Shown here: one piece after another, positions 21,474 to 56,775 of the stretch
Position numbering within the stretch: position 1 is the stretch's first letter
Layout: each line of letters begins with the position of its first letter
Assembly (NCBI GenBank): GCA_947646915.1
Contig: CANSII010000006.1
Coordinates: 37 to 64,036 of the forward strand
DNA from: an uncultured Clostridium sp.
Lineage (GTDB): Bacteria > Bacillota > Clostridia > TANB77 > CAG-508
Length of the DNA stretch: 64,000 nucleotides
Direction: 5' to 3'
Notes under the pieces: generated by a model
The model's input: the letters and a program-made list of their open reading frames with translations, nothing else
Told to the model about the DNA's origin: nothing
The model's database searches: none
Position numbers and translations under genes: made by a program

Positions 21474-22238
21474 ATGGCCAAAAGTAAAAAAAATAAAGTA
21501 CAAGAAAACCACAAAGAAGAAACTAATGTACAAGGCGAAAAAATTGAGAATCAAGAAGTTGTAGAAGAGAAAACAGAAGAACAAAAAGAAAAGGAAAAAC
21601 TATCTAAAGACATAAAAAATTTCATTGCAGATATTAAGGACTTTGTTACAGGATATGAGAAATATCATAATATTATGAAAATTAATCCATTAAAGGAGAC
21701 ATTATCTCAATTACAAAAAAGAGAGAATTTAGAGGTAGATGACAAAAAATATTTAGCTCAAATAAATAGAACTATTTATGCCAAAACTTTAAGAAGTGGA
21801 GAAAGAATGCCTGAACATCCAGGTACATTAATGTTTAGATCTTTAGAAGAAAAAGTAAAAAGACTATCAGAAATAGCAGAATCATATGGAGAACTTAATT
21901 ATATTACAACCATTGATGATGTAACCAAAGAAGAATTTTACTGTATAAAAGAAAAAGTAGTAGACGATAAATTAGTTATTGAAGATGCTCTAAAAATAAC
22001 CAATGTTGGAGGAGCATATCTAGCTGAAGCTATGGAAGAACAAGAAATAAATGAAATTAAAGAAAAATATAAAGAAGAAATAAGTTGTGATGAATTAAAT
22101 GTATTTAAGAAAGAAATTAAAAATGATCCTAATTATGCTTTAAATTATTATTCAAAGATTTGTGAAAACAGAAAACTAGAAGCACAAGACAAAAATAAAG
22201 AGTTGGACCAAATTGAAGAAGAAGTTGCAGAAGCATAG
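21474..22238 (+). CDS. Hypothetical acidic protein
   Basis: ORF track, GAGGAGG upstream, tail EEEVAEA. Confidence 0.55.
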   Translation: MAKSKKNKVQENHKEETNVQGEKIENQEVVEEKTEEQKEKEKLSKDIKNFIADIKDFVTGYEKYHNIMKINPLKETLSQLQKRENLEVDDKKYLAQINRTIYAKTLRSGERMPEHPGTLMFRSLEEKVKRLSEIAESYGELNYITTIDDVTKEEFYCIKEKVVDDKLVIEDALKITNVGGAYLAEAMEEQEINEIKEKYKEEISCDELNVFKKEIKNDPNYALNYYSKICENRKLEAQDKNKELDQIEEEVAEA

Positions 22239-22247
22239 GAAAATTAA

Positions 22248-23348
22248 ATGGTTAATTATACAGAGTTTAAAAAGATAAAAGAAAAGTTAGGAGAAAAAGC
22301 GGATTATAAAGAATTTGTTAATGTACAAAAATATTTAGATGAAAATCCAAATTTGCTCCTAACTAATTTATATTATAACAAAGAAAATTGGGATCAGTTT
22401 GAAAAATGGAAATTTGATAATGAAATAAAAAACAAAAAAGTATTTGCAGTTGTATATAAAGATAATCAAATGCAAATAGATTATTTAAAGATTGAACCAT
22501 ATAAGTTTGAAAGATATACAGATGGTTTAAGTATCTATCATAAGGAGAATCAATTATTTCTAACATTAGAAGACGCTAAGAAATCACTATGGAATTATAG
22601 AAGCGGTTATATATATACTAAGGCAACACAAGAATATATGGATTCAATAGAAAAAGACAAAAAGGAACTTATAAAAGAGTATTATGGGAAAAGCGATTTA
22701 GAGTGTGTATGGTTCAATAAAGTAAAAGAATTAAATGAAAATAAAGCGATTGAAAAAATATATGAAGTTTATACAGAAGAATTTTTGGGTGCTTGGTATT
22801 TAATTAAAGACATTGAACAAAACAGATATATTGTTAAACATAAGACAAATGATGTAAATACAAAATTTGGAATGAATGATTATTTATTAGAAAATGATTA
22901 CGAAAGAATAGAAAGCAAAGAATTAGATATTACACAATATGACTTTAATACAAAACAAAAATATGGACAAATGATTTTTGATTATTTAATTGAATTTAAA
23001 AATAAAGTTGAAAAAGATTACTTTAAACTAGGTTTAAACACAATAGATATAATTGAAAAATTTTTGGAAGATTATAATACAACAATATATGAAAGAACAA
23101 AAGAATATATAAGTCCACTTAGTAAGTTAAAAGAAGATTTAGAACTACAAGAATGTTTTATTAGACATGTTAAATTTGATATTAAATGTAATATTAGAGA
23201 TGAATTAAATAGTTTAAATTTCACAAAAAATAATGCTTACATAAATGAAGAAAATATAGAAGAGTTTATATGTGAATTTACACAAAAAGCAATATATGGA
23301 GAAAATGATGAAATGCTTGAAAATGAGGAGGGAGAAAATGAACAATAA
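22248..23348 (+). CDS. Hypothetical acidic protein
   Basis: ORF track, tail ENEEGENEQ, 3' end contains the SD of the next gene. Confidence 0.55.
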   Translation: MVNYTEFKKIKEKLGEKADYKEFVNVQKYLDENPNLLLTNLYYNKENWDQFEKWKFDNEIKNKKVFAVVYKDNQMQIDYLKIEPYKFERYTDGLSIYHKENQLFLTLEDAKKSLWNYRSGYIYTKATQEYMDSIEKDKKELIKEYYGKSDLECVWFNKVKELNENKAIEKIYEVYTEEFLGAWYLIKDIEQNRYIVKHKTNDVNTKFGMNDYLLENDYERIESKELDITQYDFNTKQKYGQMIFDYLIEFKNKVEKDYFKLGLNTIDIIEKFLEDYNTTIYERTKEYISPLSKLKEDLELQECFIRHVKFDIKCNIRDELNSLNFTKNNAYINEENIEEFICEFTQKAIYGENDEMLENEEGENEQ

Positions 23349-23646
23349 TTTTGATTTTGATTTTTGGAAAAGAGAATTCAAAAGGAGATTTGAACTAAAT
23401 GAAATTACAGGTCAAATGTTAGATAATTTTATCTATTATAATCCTGAAATGGCAAAAAGATATATTATAGATGTATATCAACAAAAAGTATATAAATGTG
23501 ATATTTTGGACAAATATTGCGATAGATATGATTCGGAAAAAATAAATTCTATTTTAAAGCAAATTGAATTTGATGAACTAACAGAGGAAGAAATACAAGA
23601 ATATGAAATTAAAAAATCAGAAGAAGAGGAAAATCAGGAACTATGA
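23338..23646 (+). CDS. Hypothetical small acidic protein
   Basis: ATG at 23338 after GAGGAGGGAG (the track start 23272 lies inside the previous gene). Tail SEEEENQEL. Confidence 0.55.
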   Translation: MNNNFDFDFWKREFKRRFELNEITGQMLDNFIYYNPEMAKRYIIDVYQQKVYKCDILDKYCDRYDSEKINSILKQIEFDELTEEEIQEYEIKKSEEEENQEL

Positions 23647-55278: not shown

Positions 55279-55836
55279 ATGAAAAAAGAATATATTATTA
55301 AGTTTAAAGATTCACAAGCATACATAAAAAGTTTAGAAAGCAAAACTGATATGTACACTTTTGATATAAAAAATGCTAAAAGATATGAAAAAGAAGATGC
55401 AGAAAATATTATAAAAAATAAGAATGAACTTGAAGTTGTAAATTATCAAAAAGAGTTATACAAATCAAAAAATGAAGGTTTTAAATTGTTTGCAAAAGCA
55501 CTTATAGTACAAGAAAATGATGATATTTCAAATGAAGATATTGAACTGTTTGAAAAAGAAGTAAAAAGTGATGGAATGTATGTTGCTTGCAGTAGTCTAA
55601 AGAATAAATATCCTCAAAATATTTTAATAAATGAAATGGAAAGAATATCTCAAAAATTAGAATTTAGAACTCATTGTGATAAAAAGCCAGAATTATATAA
55701 GAATTATAAAGAAATATGCAAGGAATATGATTATGATGATGAAAGGCAATTAGAAATTTTAAAACTAACATTTTATGAAAAATATATCACAAGAGATATA
55801 ACTGAAGAAGATGAAATTGAATTACAAGAAGATTAG
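55279..55836 (+). CDS. Hypothetical protein
   Basis: ORF track frame; ATG at 55279 preferred over GTG 55270. Confidence 0.5.
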   Translation: MKKEYIIKFKDSQAYIKSLESKTDMYTFDIKNAKRYEKEDAENIIKNKNELEVVNYQKELYKSKNEGFKLFAKALIVQENDDISNEDIELFEKEVKSDGMYVACSSLKNKYPQNILINEMERISQKLEFRTHCDKKPELYKNYKEICKEYDYDDERQLEILKLTFYEKYITRDITEEDEIELQED

Positions 55837-55847
55837 GATGTGAAAGT

Positions 55848-56186
55848 ATGAAGAAGAAAGAATATAAAGATGTAACATATGGTATGAAATATAAAGAATT
55901 TTCAAAAATTTTAAGTAGAAAAATGATGCTCGTAAAAGATTGCAAAGGATATGAAAAATTTAAAGCTGATATAAAAATATTAAGAGATAGTAGAGAAAAC
56001 TGTGGTAATGCAACATTACTTGCAAATCATTGGATGAGATCTATATGTAATATGTCTAAACAAGAATTAATTAAATTAGTAGATAATTATCAAGAAGGAT
56101 ACTTCAATCCATATCAGTTTTCAGCAGAACAGGAGGAAACTAATTTGAATAATGAAAATGAGGAGGAAGAAGAAAATGAATTATAA
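55848..56186 (+). CDS. Hypothetical small protein
   Basis: ORF track, tail NENEEEEENEL containing the next gene's SD. Confidence 0.5.
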   Translation: MKKKEYKDVTYGMKYKEFSKILSRKMMLVKDCKGYEKFKADIKILRDSRENCGNATLLANHWMRSICNMSKQELIKLVDNYQEGYFNPYQFSAEQEETNLNNENEEEEENEL

Positions 56187-56775
56187 TGCTTTAGCAGTAT
56201 GCCAAAGTCCTAATGAAAAGCCTTTTATTGTTTCAATTTATACATATTTTGATAAAGATGTTGTAATTTCAAATTTAGAAAGATTTAAAAGAAAATATAA
56301 AGATACAGAAATAAAAGTTCTTTCAAGTTGGATAGAAAAAAAAGAAATAATAGATATTAGAGAACTGTTTTATAAAAGAATTTGCGAGAATTATATAAAA
56401 ACAATGGATACACAAGTATTGTTTCAAAGTCCTCAAAATAATAACTCAATCGTTCATGCTTATATTAGAGATGAAGCTATAGACTTAAAATATGAAAAGA
56501 AGATAAATCTTCAAAATTATAAAGAATATTTAAATGGTGAAGAATCTGTTTATGAATATGATACATATGAAGATTTTTATGAAGCATTTGTAAAAGATTT
56601 CATATTGGAGGATATAAGAGATTTAGGATTATTTAATGGAAAAAATAATGAATGGGATTTTTATATATCTTATAATGATATGATATTATTAGGAATGGAA
56701 GATGAAATAAATAAAAGCATTGAAGAAGAAATTGCAGAAGACTTAAAAAAAGAAAATGATGAAGAAGAACAGTAA
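56176..56775 (+). CDS. Hypothetical acidic protein, last gene of the array
   Basis: ATG at 56176 after GAGGAGGAAGAAGAAA, tail ENDEEEQ. Confidence 0.55.
   Translation: MNYNALAVCQSPNEKPFIVSIYTYFDKDVVISNLERFKRKYKDTEIKVLSSWIEKKEIIDIRELFYKRICENYIKTMDTQVLFQSPQNNNSIVHAYIRDEAIDLKYEKKINLQNYKEYLNGEESVYEYDTYEDFYEAFVKDFILEDIRDLGLFNGKNNEWDFYISYNDMILLGMEDEINKSIEEEIAEDLKKENDEEEQ

Follow-up and report, generated by a model that had tools for sequence, protein, structure and literature searches.

Conjugative elements consist in large part of accessory arrays of unknown genes, about which next to nothing is known for Gram-positive gut bacteria. The closest described systems come from other settings. Leading-region islands of conjugative elements have been surveyed (Samuel et al. 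2024, PMC11541004); MOBP3 elements are not represented in that survey (PMC11541004, Methods). Polyvalent proteins form a class proposed to act in the earliest phase of invasion, perhaps once injected together with the DNA (PMC5512222), and the LPD11 and DpnD/PcfM domains belong to the set assigned to that phase (Iyer et al. 2017, PMC5512222). Glu-rich C-terminal signals for a type IV secretion system (T4SS) are known from the substrates of Dot/Icm (Huang et al. 2011, PMC3096851). Co-transfer of proteins during conjugation is also known (PMC8406263, PMC11288057). Here we describe an island of acidic genes on an integrative conjugative element of an uncultured Clostridium sp. The analyzed stretch, hereafter the window, covers 64 kb (64,000 nt) of contig CANSII010000006.1 (assembly GCA_947646915.1). 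Proteins encoded by the island share a Glu-rich C-terminal tail, which is an undescribed and sharply defined feature.

The acidic island and its C-terminal tail

The G+C content of the window is ~25%, and nearly all of its coding sequence is on the + strand. The bounds and counts of the acidic blocks were taken from the list of open reading frames (ORFs) and from our own non-overlapping tiling of the + strand. The blocks and the module between them are as follows.

21474..26397, + strand: block A, 7 acidic soluble ORFs, all with a Glu-rich tail and none with a family match.
26394..33541, + strand: sortase and thioester/SpaA LPXTG adhesin module between the blocks, with its own copy of the promoter module at 27899.
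33939..56775, + strand: block B, 35 acidic soluble ORFs, 83% with a Glu tail, reaching the right end of the element.

A sequence-only reading of the window had described about 40 co-oriented and tightly packed acidic ORFs of unknown function. This description holds. We counted 42 block ORFs, all on the + strand (7 in 21474-26397 and 35 in 33939-56775), with a median isoelectric point (pI) of 4.73, compared with 6.52 for the other 49 ORFs of the window. The pI is below 5.3 in 35 of the 42. Packing by overlaps and short gaps was likewise borne out: 27 of 42 junctions overlap or have a gap of less than 9 nt, and the rest are mostly 9 to 27 nt. The exceptional gaps are 110, 161, and 230 nt. The single-strand layout is true of the blocks but is not specific to them, as the entire 64-kb window is one-stranded. 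The proposed scale of ~35 kb has to be reduced. The two acidic stretches together span ~28 kb, and the larger figure takes in the sortase and LPXTG-adhesin module.

The block ORFs encode soluble proteins, with a membrane-like segment in only one doubtful fragment among the 42. Protein bodies are acidic as well as the ends, and the median pI is 4.87 when the last ten residues are removed. The acidity is sharply focused in the C-terminal tail. Positions -2 to -8 of the block ORFs are 52 to 69% Asp or Glu, mostly Glu, with a sharp drop at -9. The same positions are 12 to 24% Asp or Glu in the other ORFs of the window. Typical endings are EEEEEL, EEDEETI, ESEEEEM, and ENEEEQ. The last residue is hydrophobic in 55% of the block ORFs. 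The terminal 8-mer lies within the most acidic 5% of the 8-mers of its own protein in 31 of 42 ORFs.

A tail was scored where at least four residues in positions -9 to -2 were Asp or Glu. It is present on 7 of 7 ORFs in block A and on 83% of those in block B. The control values within the window were 12% for the transfer-gene part, 0% for the adhesin module, and 0% for the right flank. Among further controls, a phage locus and chromosomal flanks gave 5 to 8%, and plasmid pBMB68 had 0 tailed ORFs out of 60. Two tail-bearing ORFs belong to transfer operons.

9541..10002, + strand: tail-bearing ORF within a transfer operon, ending in KEEDEELEI.
16098..16814, + strand: tail-bearing ORF that ends a transfer operon, with the tail DNEEEEEM; the next gene is 279 nt away.

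Block ORFs without a tail are mostly fragments of split genes (34605-35054 and 39897-40091) and the remnant of a radical-SAM gene. The upstream fragments have no tail because the genes at 34605-35578 and 39897-41025 are probably split by frameshifts. The first of these is divided into 149 and 175 aa and is a single 324-aa ORF in a related locus (L023). For the second, the DNA alignment with a distant island (L010) is unbroken across the boundary between 39897-40091 and 40072-41025.

The tail could have been the Shine-Dalgarno (SD) sequence of the next gene. We rejected this candidate. Mean tail strength is 4.6 where the next start is at least 9 nt away (n=15) and 4.5 where the genes overlap (n=27), with a P value of 0.89. 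GAG makes up a share of 0.12 of the Glu codons where the gene after a tail is distant, 0.11 in gene bodies, and 0.34 in the overlapping class, which argues that the SD sequence is laid over the tail and is not its cause. Tails are kept before gaps of 110, 161, and 279 nt, and this includes the last gene of the element. A frame-blind purine run, which should yield Lys and Arg at the rate of Glu, was also rejected. Codon counts in the tails are 167 for Glu, 14 for Lys, and 6 for Arg, and the Glu:Lys ratio, 1.1 in gene bodies, reaches 11.9 there. By codon usage and gene spacing, then, the tail is selected at the protein level. A real feature of the proteins, kept by selection, is thereby set apart from the overall acidity noted in the sequence-only reading.

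Orthologues in the sister island (L004), at 50 to 74% amino acid identity, have retained acidic tails, which differ in sequence and are present even where the following gap is 79 to 112 nt. Most ORFs in three distant islands (L010, L012, and L013) have no detectable homology to the window. Tails occur there on 56 to 65% of the ORFs downstream of the adhesin gene and on 0% of those upstream. Only the island-type relatives in the DUF7659 family carry the tail; distant members, including one from a phage early region (L005), are without it. Proteins of the LPD11 family and of the family of ORF 52867-53661 carry an island-type tail at the extreme C terminus whatever modules are fused. One LPD11 and S6-like fusion ends in DEEEEEEQ, and a radical-SAM activase fusion ends in ENEDSEEDLEP. 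Fusions of LPD11 with DpnD also exist. Distant LPD11 proteins have no tail. Because the tail tracks the extreme C terminus across fusions and is absent from distant homologues, it behaves in these comparisons as a terminal address tag and not as a domain feature, and it is specific to this element lineage.

Island proteins, host element, and promoter modules

Between 41 and 45 block ORFs were scanned against Pfam, NCBIfam, PHROGs, and PADLOC. The only named domain matches were to LPD11, DpnD/PcfM (two ORFs), DUF7659, a ribosomal-protein-S6-like domain, and a degenerate radical SAM. The ORFs concerned, and two members of a mosaic family, are listed here. Structure models are from AlphaFold2 (AF2), with confidence given as the predicted local distance difference test (pLDDT) and the predicted template modeling score (pTM).

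35595..36619, + strand: degenerate radical-SAM gene (PA0069 or mobile-pair-B type), split, without the Cys motif and without a tail.
36621..37838, + strand: mosaic-family member with the module KYITLKEVGEKYSKKLANIMFELGYGEWVF, a paralogue of 52867-53661.
38178-38717, + strand: ribosomal-protein-S6-like domain (residues 2-90) with an acidic C-terminal extension (Pfam, 50.2 bits; TIGR00166, 6.4e-10; S6 chains in PDB, 5e-7).
44907-45677, + strand: solo LPD11 protein (Pfam, 95.3 bits), with the tail EKNNEEEI.
45661-46614, + strand: protein with an N-terminal DpnD/PcfM domain (Pfam, 40.7 bits) and the tail ESEENEEEQ; the SD sequence of the next gene lies outside the coding sequence.
46634-47089, + strand: DUF7659 protein (Pfam, 150 bits), with the tail REEEEEI.
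51221-52186, + strand: protein with an internal DpnD/PcfM-like domain (Pfam, 24 bits, cutoff 25) and the tail QEEEEEM, first after the promoter module at 51103.
52867..53661, + strand: second mosaic-family member, with an all-helical AF2 model (pLDDT 75).

The earlier identification of a DpnD/PcfM pair, a radical SAM, and a polyvalent-protein-like module was correct (40.7 and 24 bits, PA0069 at 1.5e-18, and LPD11 at 95 bits). It had also been stated that almost nothing else is recognizable. Most ORFs are indeed without a match, but DUF7659 (150 bits) and the S6-like domain (50 bits) must be added. Matches to ordinary structural or metabolic families, the result named beforehand as counting against an establishment or anti-defense island, were looked for by profile search, and the ORFs match none. 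PHROGs otherwise returned eight families. Seven are undescribed, and the match to the eighth, "RNA polymerase inhibitor," is weak (E = 6e-4); these matches are not assigned to ORFs. Block B had no match in the phage and plasmid collections by megablast, and the DpnD protein had none in plasmids by tblastn. Homologues of the block ORFs are confined to this island lineage or to unannotated proteins.

The two DpnD/PcfM proteins are linked to each other by BLASTP (51221-52186 and 45661-46614). The S6-like domain is diverged and is found elsewhere fused to LPD11 in proteins of 408 to 414 aa (P0264 and P0265). It appears to be a recurrent module of the island protein set. The radical-SAM remnant at 36026-36619 scores 19.7 bits in Pfam and 1.5e-18 against the PA0069 family of NCBIfam. 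Its N-terminal piece has kept the NPY motif and lost the Cys cluster. Versions of 259 to 286 aa are encoded by sister islands (L004 and L021).

The DUF7659 model has a pLDDT of 94 and a pTM of 0.82. It had no significant Foldseek match in PDB, and the sole match in BFVD was weak and unnamed (W6ATF7). The predicted structure may be an undescribed fold common to phage early regions and conjugative islands. The model of 52867-53661 had no significant Foldseek match in PDB or BFVD. The tail regions of both models have low pLDDT. An exhaustive profile search with the 52867 family gave 162 matches. Ten of these were scanned against Pfam; nine were blank and one had a sub-threshold match to DUF6329. 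Internal paralogies had been expected in the block, and the pair 36621 and 52867 is confirmed (E = 1e-6, with 32% identity over 78 aa); almost no other was found by all-against-all BLASTP.

The ratio of nonsynonymous to synonymous substitution rates (dN/dS) is 0.2 to 0.48 for 14 orthologue pairs in a comparison with the sister island L004 (75% DNA identity). Because of these values, we regard the island genes as real and, as far as substitution rates tell, under moderate purifying selection.

The block had been placed on a conjugative element. This placement is confirmed by a ParB-like protein, a ribbon-helix-helix (RHH) accessory protein, a MobP3-like relaxase, VirD4, TrbL, PrgI, fragments of VirB4, and a protein that binds single-stranded DNA (SSB). 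By this gene content, the host of the block is a ~60-kb MOBP3-type integrative conjugative element (ICE) of uncultured gut Clostridia. The acidic island is, from comparison of related loci, a hypervariable accessory island that forms the right end of the element.

2084-3097, + strand: ParB-like protein (Pfam and synteny).
3101-3547, + strand: RHH (NikA/CopG-like) accessory protein (RHH_1).
3544-4845, + strand: MobA/VirD2-type (MobP3-like) relaxase (PF03432, 25.8 bits, cutoff 24.6).
4894-5280, 5508-5765, and 5792-6937, + strand: VirD4 coupling protein in three ORFs (VirD4 domains, 151.9 bits).
11767..13385, + strand: VirB4-like ATPase region in three ORFs, without an intact Walker A motif.
17619-18266, + strand: SSB (72 bits) with a 110-aa N-terminal extension and without an acidic C-terminal tip.

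The SSB-like gene at 17619 had been pointed out from the sequence and is confirmed. By tblastn, the relaxase aligns with annotated MobP3 relaxases of Bacillus thuringiensis plasmids at 25% identity, covering 66% of the query. The transfer region also encodes TrbL, a pilin-like protein, PrgI, and an M23 peptidase. Its gene order is relaxase, VirD4, TrbL, PrgI, an unidentified gene, VirB4, and hydrolase, which is the order of pBMB68. The element thus has the MobA/VirD2-superfamily relaxase and RHH accessory protein of a Gram-positive VirB4-VirD4 ICE. It does not have intact VirD4 and VirB4. The three VirD4 ORFs correspond to the transmembrane part, the Walker A part, and the C-terminal part. A canonical Walker A is absent from every + strand ORF of the window. 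The homologues in pBMB68 are intact single genes (type IV coupling protein [T4CP], 648 aa; VirB4, 632 aa).

Near-identical copies from independent samples (99.7 to 99.99% identity) have the same T4CP split, which was recorded in L001 to L003, and their VirB4 region is fragmented in a similar way. In the assembly collection, 175 to 378 blocks list exact copies of individual element proteins. The left flank is chromosomal (ABC transporter, Spo0A-C-like gene, and sigma/anti-sigma pair). On the right, yebC comes after the last acidic gene, and the spoIIIA operon and dapB come after yebC in other genomes. The right end of the element must fall in the 350-nt spacer between the last island gene and yebC. 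This spacer contains 2.5 copies of the tandem direct repeat GCAATTTTGGT (56971-57000). No integrase or recombinase was found between the chromosomal flanks, and metagenome scans found no empty integration site. This copy of the element is probably no longer self-transmissible, because T4CP and VirB4 are fragmented and no integrase is recognizable.

The region 2084..4845 is the presumed neighborhood of the origin of transfer (oriT). No oriT or nic homologue was found, and an inverted-repeat search near the relaxase gave only unremarkable repeats and no convincing oriT. Scans of the window gave no tRNA and no Rfam family at gathering score. After circularization, the end of the island would lie ~6 kb from the relaxase-proximal region. 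If the canonical polarity holds, in which the relaxase enters last, the island would enter early and the transferred strand would be the template.

Related islands were found in six metagenome-assembled genomes (MAGs) labeled uncultured Clostridium or Clostridia. Several of these MAGs bear MGBC names, which we take to mean mouse gut. In a rearranged and degenerate relative (L019/L020, related to 52867-53661), the genes that come after the island part encode a nucleotidyltransferase-like protein, a sortase, a TraC-like protein, and a coupling protein that is likewise split (370 and 117 aa). Decay of the transfer ATPases seems to be recurrent in this element family.

Promoters in the window share a 22-nt motif of two 11-bp direct repeats, GGGAAAAATTT followed directly by GGGAATTGAAA. 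The second repeat overlaps a TTGAAA -35 box, and the motif is followed by a 17-nt spacing and TATAAT. Nine sites are present on the + strand (1947, 8131, 11637, 16828, 20279, 27899, 35586, 51103, and 63031), and none is expected by chance. At 8 of the 9, a strong hairpin flanked by an A-run and a U-run lies within 10 to 60 nt (-15 to -26 kcal/mol, z score of -4 to -6.8). The nine leader regions have no common consensus fold, and the hairpin sequences differ. The module is conserved in L004. Three copies precede acidic operons.

20279..20385, + strand: module with both repeats, 17-nt spacing, TATGAT, and a hairpin with a U-run (-20.3 kcal/mol, z = -5.3), ahead of the block A operon.
35586..35700, + strand: promoter module and leader hairpin (-20.6 kcal/mol, z = -5.4), ahead of the 36026-51110 operon.
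51103..51215, + strand: promoter module and leader hairpin (-15.1 kcal/mol, z = -4.6), ahead of the 51221-56775 operon.

The block A operon starts at the module at 20279 and ends at the sortase gene. The same architecture precedes the acidic, relaxase/T4CP, T4SS, and adhesin operons. Because the acidic and transfer operons have this promoter-plus-leader module in common, the arrangement points to a single regulon. Control would perhaps combine an activator on the repeats with promoter-proximal termination or antitermination. Single-strand promoters of the Frpo/ssi type were not found among these sites. There is no Rfam family, the modules have ordinary -35 and -10 boxes, and the hairpins lie downstream of the -10 box.

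Other genes of the element and its surroundings were also noted. A paralogous pair within 194-1207, near the relaxase end, encodes proteins of 161 and 153 aa of unknown function with 44% identity. Paralogous helix-turn-helix (Cro/C1-type) regulators are encoded at 1502-1933 and 17094-17447 (30% identity). The 169-aa ORF at 18442-18951 matches only the first ~50 positions of a nitroreductase family and is probably a fragment.

A gene for a large serine recombinase starts at ~63425, past yebC and rumA, and continues over the edge of the window. It seems to belong to a second element. It was considered as the integrase of this element and dropped, since yebC is chromosomal in other genomes and the junction at 59235 appears to mark that second element. 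A rumA/rlmD-like 23S rRNA methyltransferase gene at 57903-59274 is split into a TRAM ORF and a methyltransferase ORF. The last ~13 codons of rumA come from sequence that is 99.4% identical to another locus (L014), where the left flank differs. A second mobile element appears to have inserted in the 3' end of rumA, with its left end at the junction at 59235. One promoter module, the small ORF 63152-63349, and the start of the serine recombinase lie within 63031-64000. The recombinase of L014 has 569 aa with Resolvase, Recombinase, and Zn_ribbon_recom domains, and it is preceded by GH2, acetyltransferase, and EamA genes.

Possible roles of the tail

Our preferred reading, held tentatively and at somewhat less than an even chance, is that the locus is an invasion or establishment effector island whose products share a C-terminal tag, perhaps a T4SS signal. 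The island proteins would be invader-side effectors of early entry and establishment, as solo or small-fusion counterparts of polyvalent proteins. We propose this role because of the setting in which LPD11 and DpnD/PcfM occur, because modules are shuffled and the proteins evolve fast, and because the scans gave no housekeeping families. One common partner would read the tail as an address tag, because a short terminal motif common to dozens of unrelated proteins usually reflects a common targeting or docking step. The likeliest partner would be the coupling protein or T4SS of the element. Donor-made proteins would then travel into the recipient alongside the DNA, and the tail would have a role like that of the Glu-rich E-block signal of Dot/Icm substrates. 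Delivery by the T4CP ranks, at well under an even chance, as the likeliest single mechanism because the main machine of the element is a T4SS, signals of such systems are typically C-terminal, the E-block is Glu-rich, and co-transfer is known. The stronger claim, that the Glu tail is a translocation signal of a Gram-positive conjugative T4SS and that ~40 donor-made effectors are injected with the DNA, is possible and on the unlikely side.

Several points weigh against delivery through the mating channel. Known conjugative type IVA signals carry positive charge or are hydrophobic, and are not acidic (PMC11288057). No tail is present here on the relaxase, SSB, or ParB, which are co-transferred elsewhere. 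The E-block belongs to type IVB systems that work with DotM and IcmSW, neither of which is present here, and it lies farther from the C terminus, at -11 to -18. The under-representation of Asp in the tails also fits a purine-run preference at the nucleotide level. T4CP and VirB4 are disrupted in the present copy as in every near-identical one, so a present-day transfer function is doubtful. Recognition of the tail by the T4CP is a step that we infer by analogy.

The sequence-only reading had proposed an establishment or anti-defense island and had mentioned DNA mimics such as ArdA. The conjugative context and the invasion-type domains agree with the general idea. The anti-defense part did not find its genes. 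No ArdA, ArdB/KlcA, ArdC, Psi, anti-CRISPR, Ocr, SOS-inhibitor, or methyltransferase family was found among the block ORFs in Pfam, NCBIfam, PHROGs, or PADLOC, and no known anti-restriction or anti-SOS family or PADLOC model applies. The mimics are not borne out: no ORF has an ArdA match in Pfam, none resembles ArdA or Ocr by sequence, and the two modeled proteins (52867-53661 and 46634-47089) are unlike any known mimic in fold. A classical leading-region anti-defense island, with early-transcribed acidic mimics and the tail as part of their general acidity, is therefore weighed as a rival. It draws on the conjugative context with an SSB gene nearby and on the position of the island, which abuts the end that joins the relaxase-proximal end after excision. 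Uniform orientation would make the transferred strand the template under canonical MOBP polarity, and the proteins are acidic and fast-evolving. However, the acidity is highest in a discrete tag at the terminus and does not form a surface pattern. The promoters are of the double-strand type, as in the transfer operons, with no Rfam or Frpo-like element. Early entry follows only under an assumed polarity, and the leading-region survey does not cover MOBP3 (PMC11541004). We consider this account unlikely. The tail might instead serve a generic role within one cell, as a solubility bristle, in auto-inhibition, or as a mimic of the SSB tip that docks on a common host target, with no transfer involved. 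An acidic tail with a hydrophobic last residue is SSB-tip-like, and the SSB of the element is itself without such a tip. The low pLDDT of the tails and the acidity of the bodies also agree with a generic role. But phage-borne and distant homologues do without the tail, and a solubility aid need not be strictly terminal, Glu-specific, and restricted to one lineage. This role is quite unlikely in our judgment.

Still less credence goes to the view that the genes are decaying, functionless cargo of a dead element and the tail a frozen relic. Decay is visible in the fragmented T4CP and VirB4, in the lack of an integrase between the element ends, and in the split genes (34605/35051, 39897/40072, and the radical SAM). 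The near-identical copies lie beside the same chromosomal genes in several independent assemblies, which, with the many assembly blocks that list the proteins, suggests vertical inheritance. Nevertheless, ~38 long ORFs and the promoter modules are intact, the dN/dS values against the 75%-identical sister island indicate constraint, and the island family has diversified over several Clostridia MAGs with its tails kept. The least probable account that we weighed, and a very improbable one, takes the tail as a nucleotide feature, either a purine-rich region for re-initiation or microhomology that marks cassette boundaries for shuffling. Many overlapping junctions do have the SD sequence inside the tail, with its higher GAG share, and Asp codons are scarce there. 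The islands are also mosaic, with insertion, deletion, and reordering of whole genes between the window and L004, L010, and L013. Yet tails are equally strong where the next gene is distant or absent, GAG usage there is that of gene bodies, the Glu frame is used almost always, and the tail relocates to the new C terminus in fusions.

An effector island with a shared tag would have consequences of several kinds. If the tag directs proteins through the mating channel, it would be the first substrate signal defined for a Gram-positive conjugation system. Elements would then ship a large protein arsenal ahead of gene expression, which would change the view of anti-defense and establishment. If the tag docks the proteins on a common host target, it would point to that target. 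In either case, a short tag on dozens of unrelated proteins is a handle that is easy to search for, delete, and graft onto reporters.

Comparison with known systems

The island resembles leading-region islands (PMC11541004) in its long, uniform array of small genes on a conjugative element near an SSB gene. Rapid gene turnover and the many uncharacterized genes are also shared, and early entry is compatible if the relaxase enters last. Unlike those islands, it has no known anti-defense, methyltransferase, or SOS-inhibitor family and no single-strand promoter. It uses the promoter module of the transfer operons, and a shared Glu tail is not described there.

The pED208/F systems (PMC8406263, PMC11288057) deliver maintenance and establishment proteins with the DNA through C-terminal or internal signals, which is the kind of delivery proposed here. 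The signals reported for them differ in being positive, hydrophobic, or internal. Their reported substrates are SSB, ParB, and PsiB, proteins without a Glu tail here.

Plasmids of the pAW63/pBMB68 type (MOBP3, Bacillus cereus group) share the relaxase family and the transfer gene order with this element. In contrast, pBMB68 encodes intact T4CP and VirB4, lacks an array like the acidic one here, and has 0 of 60 ORFs with at least four Asp or Glu residues in the terminal positions.

The Legionella E-block (PMC3096851) consists of 6 to 10 residues with 3 to 6 or more Glu/Asp within the C-terminal 30, on unrelated proteins, with a hydrophobic residue near the end. The island tails likewise combine a Glu block (52 to 69% Asp or Glu) with a hydrophobic last residue in 55% of cases. 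The E-block typically starts 11 to 18 residues from the end, whereas the block here is at -2 to -9 and abuts the C terminus. The Dot/Icm system (PMC3096851) is type IVB, with DotL/DotM/IcmSW adaptors, in a Gram-negative pathogen that infects eukaryotic cells. The machinery here is of the Gram-positive VirD4/VirB4/PrgI type (VirD4, TrbL, PrgI, and VirB4), and type IVB adaptors are not part of it.

The island differs from polyvalent proteins (PMC5512222) in having ~40 separate genes and no giant fusion. Each protein has its own Glu tag, and most ORFs match no LPD and no other defined domain. Solo LPD or DpnD/PcfM domains near T4SS genes, as in the polyvalent set, are found in only 3 of 42 ORFs. 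The likeness lies in these solo or short-fusion LPD11 and DpnD/PcfM proteins beside T4SS genes. Their relatives shuffle the same modules, as LPD11 with the S6-like domain, LPD11 with DpnD, and the 52867 module with a radical-SAM activase.

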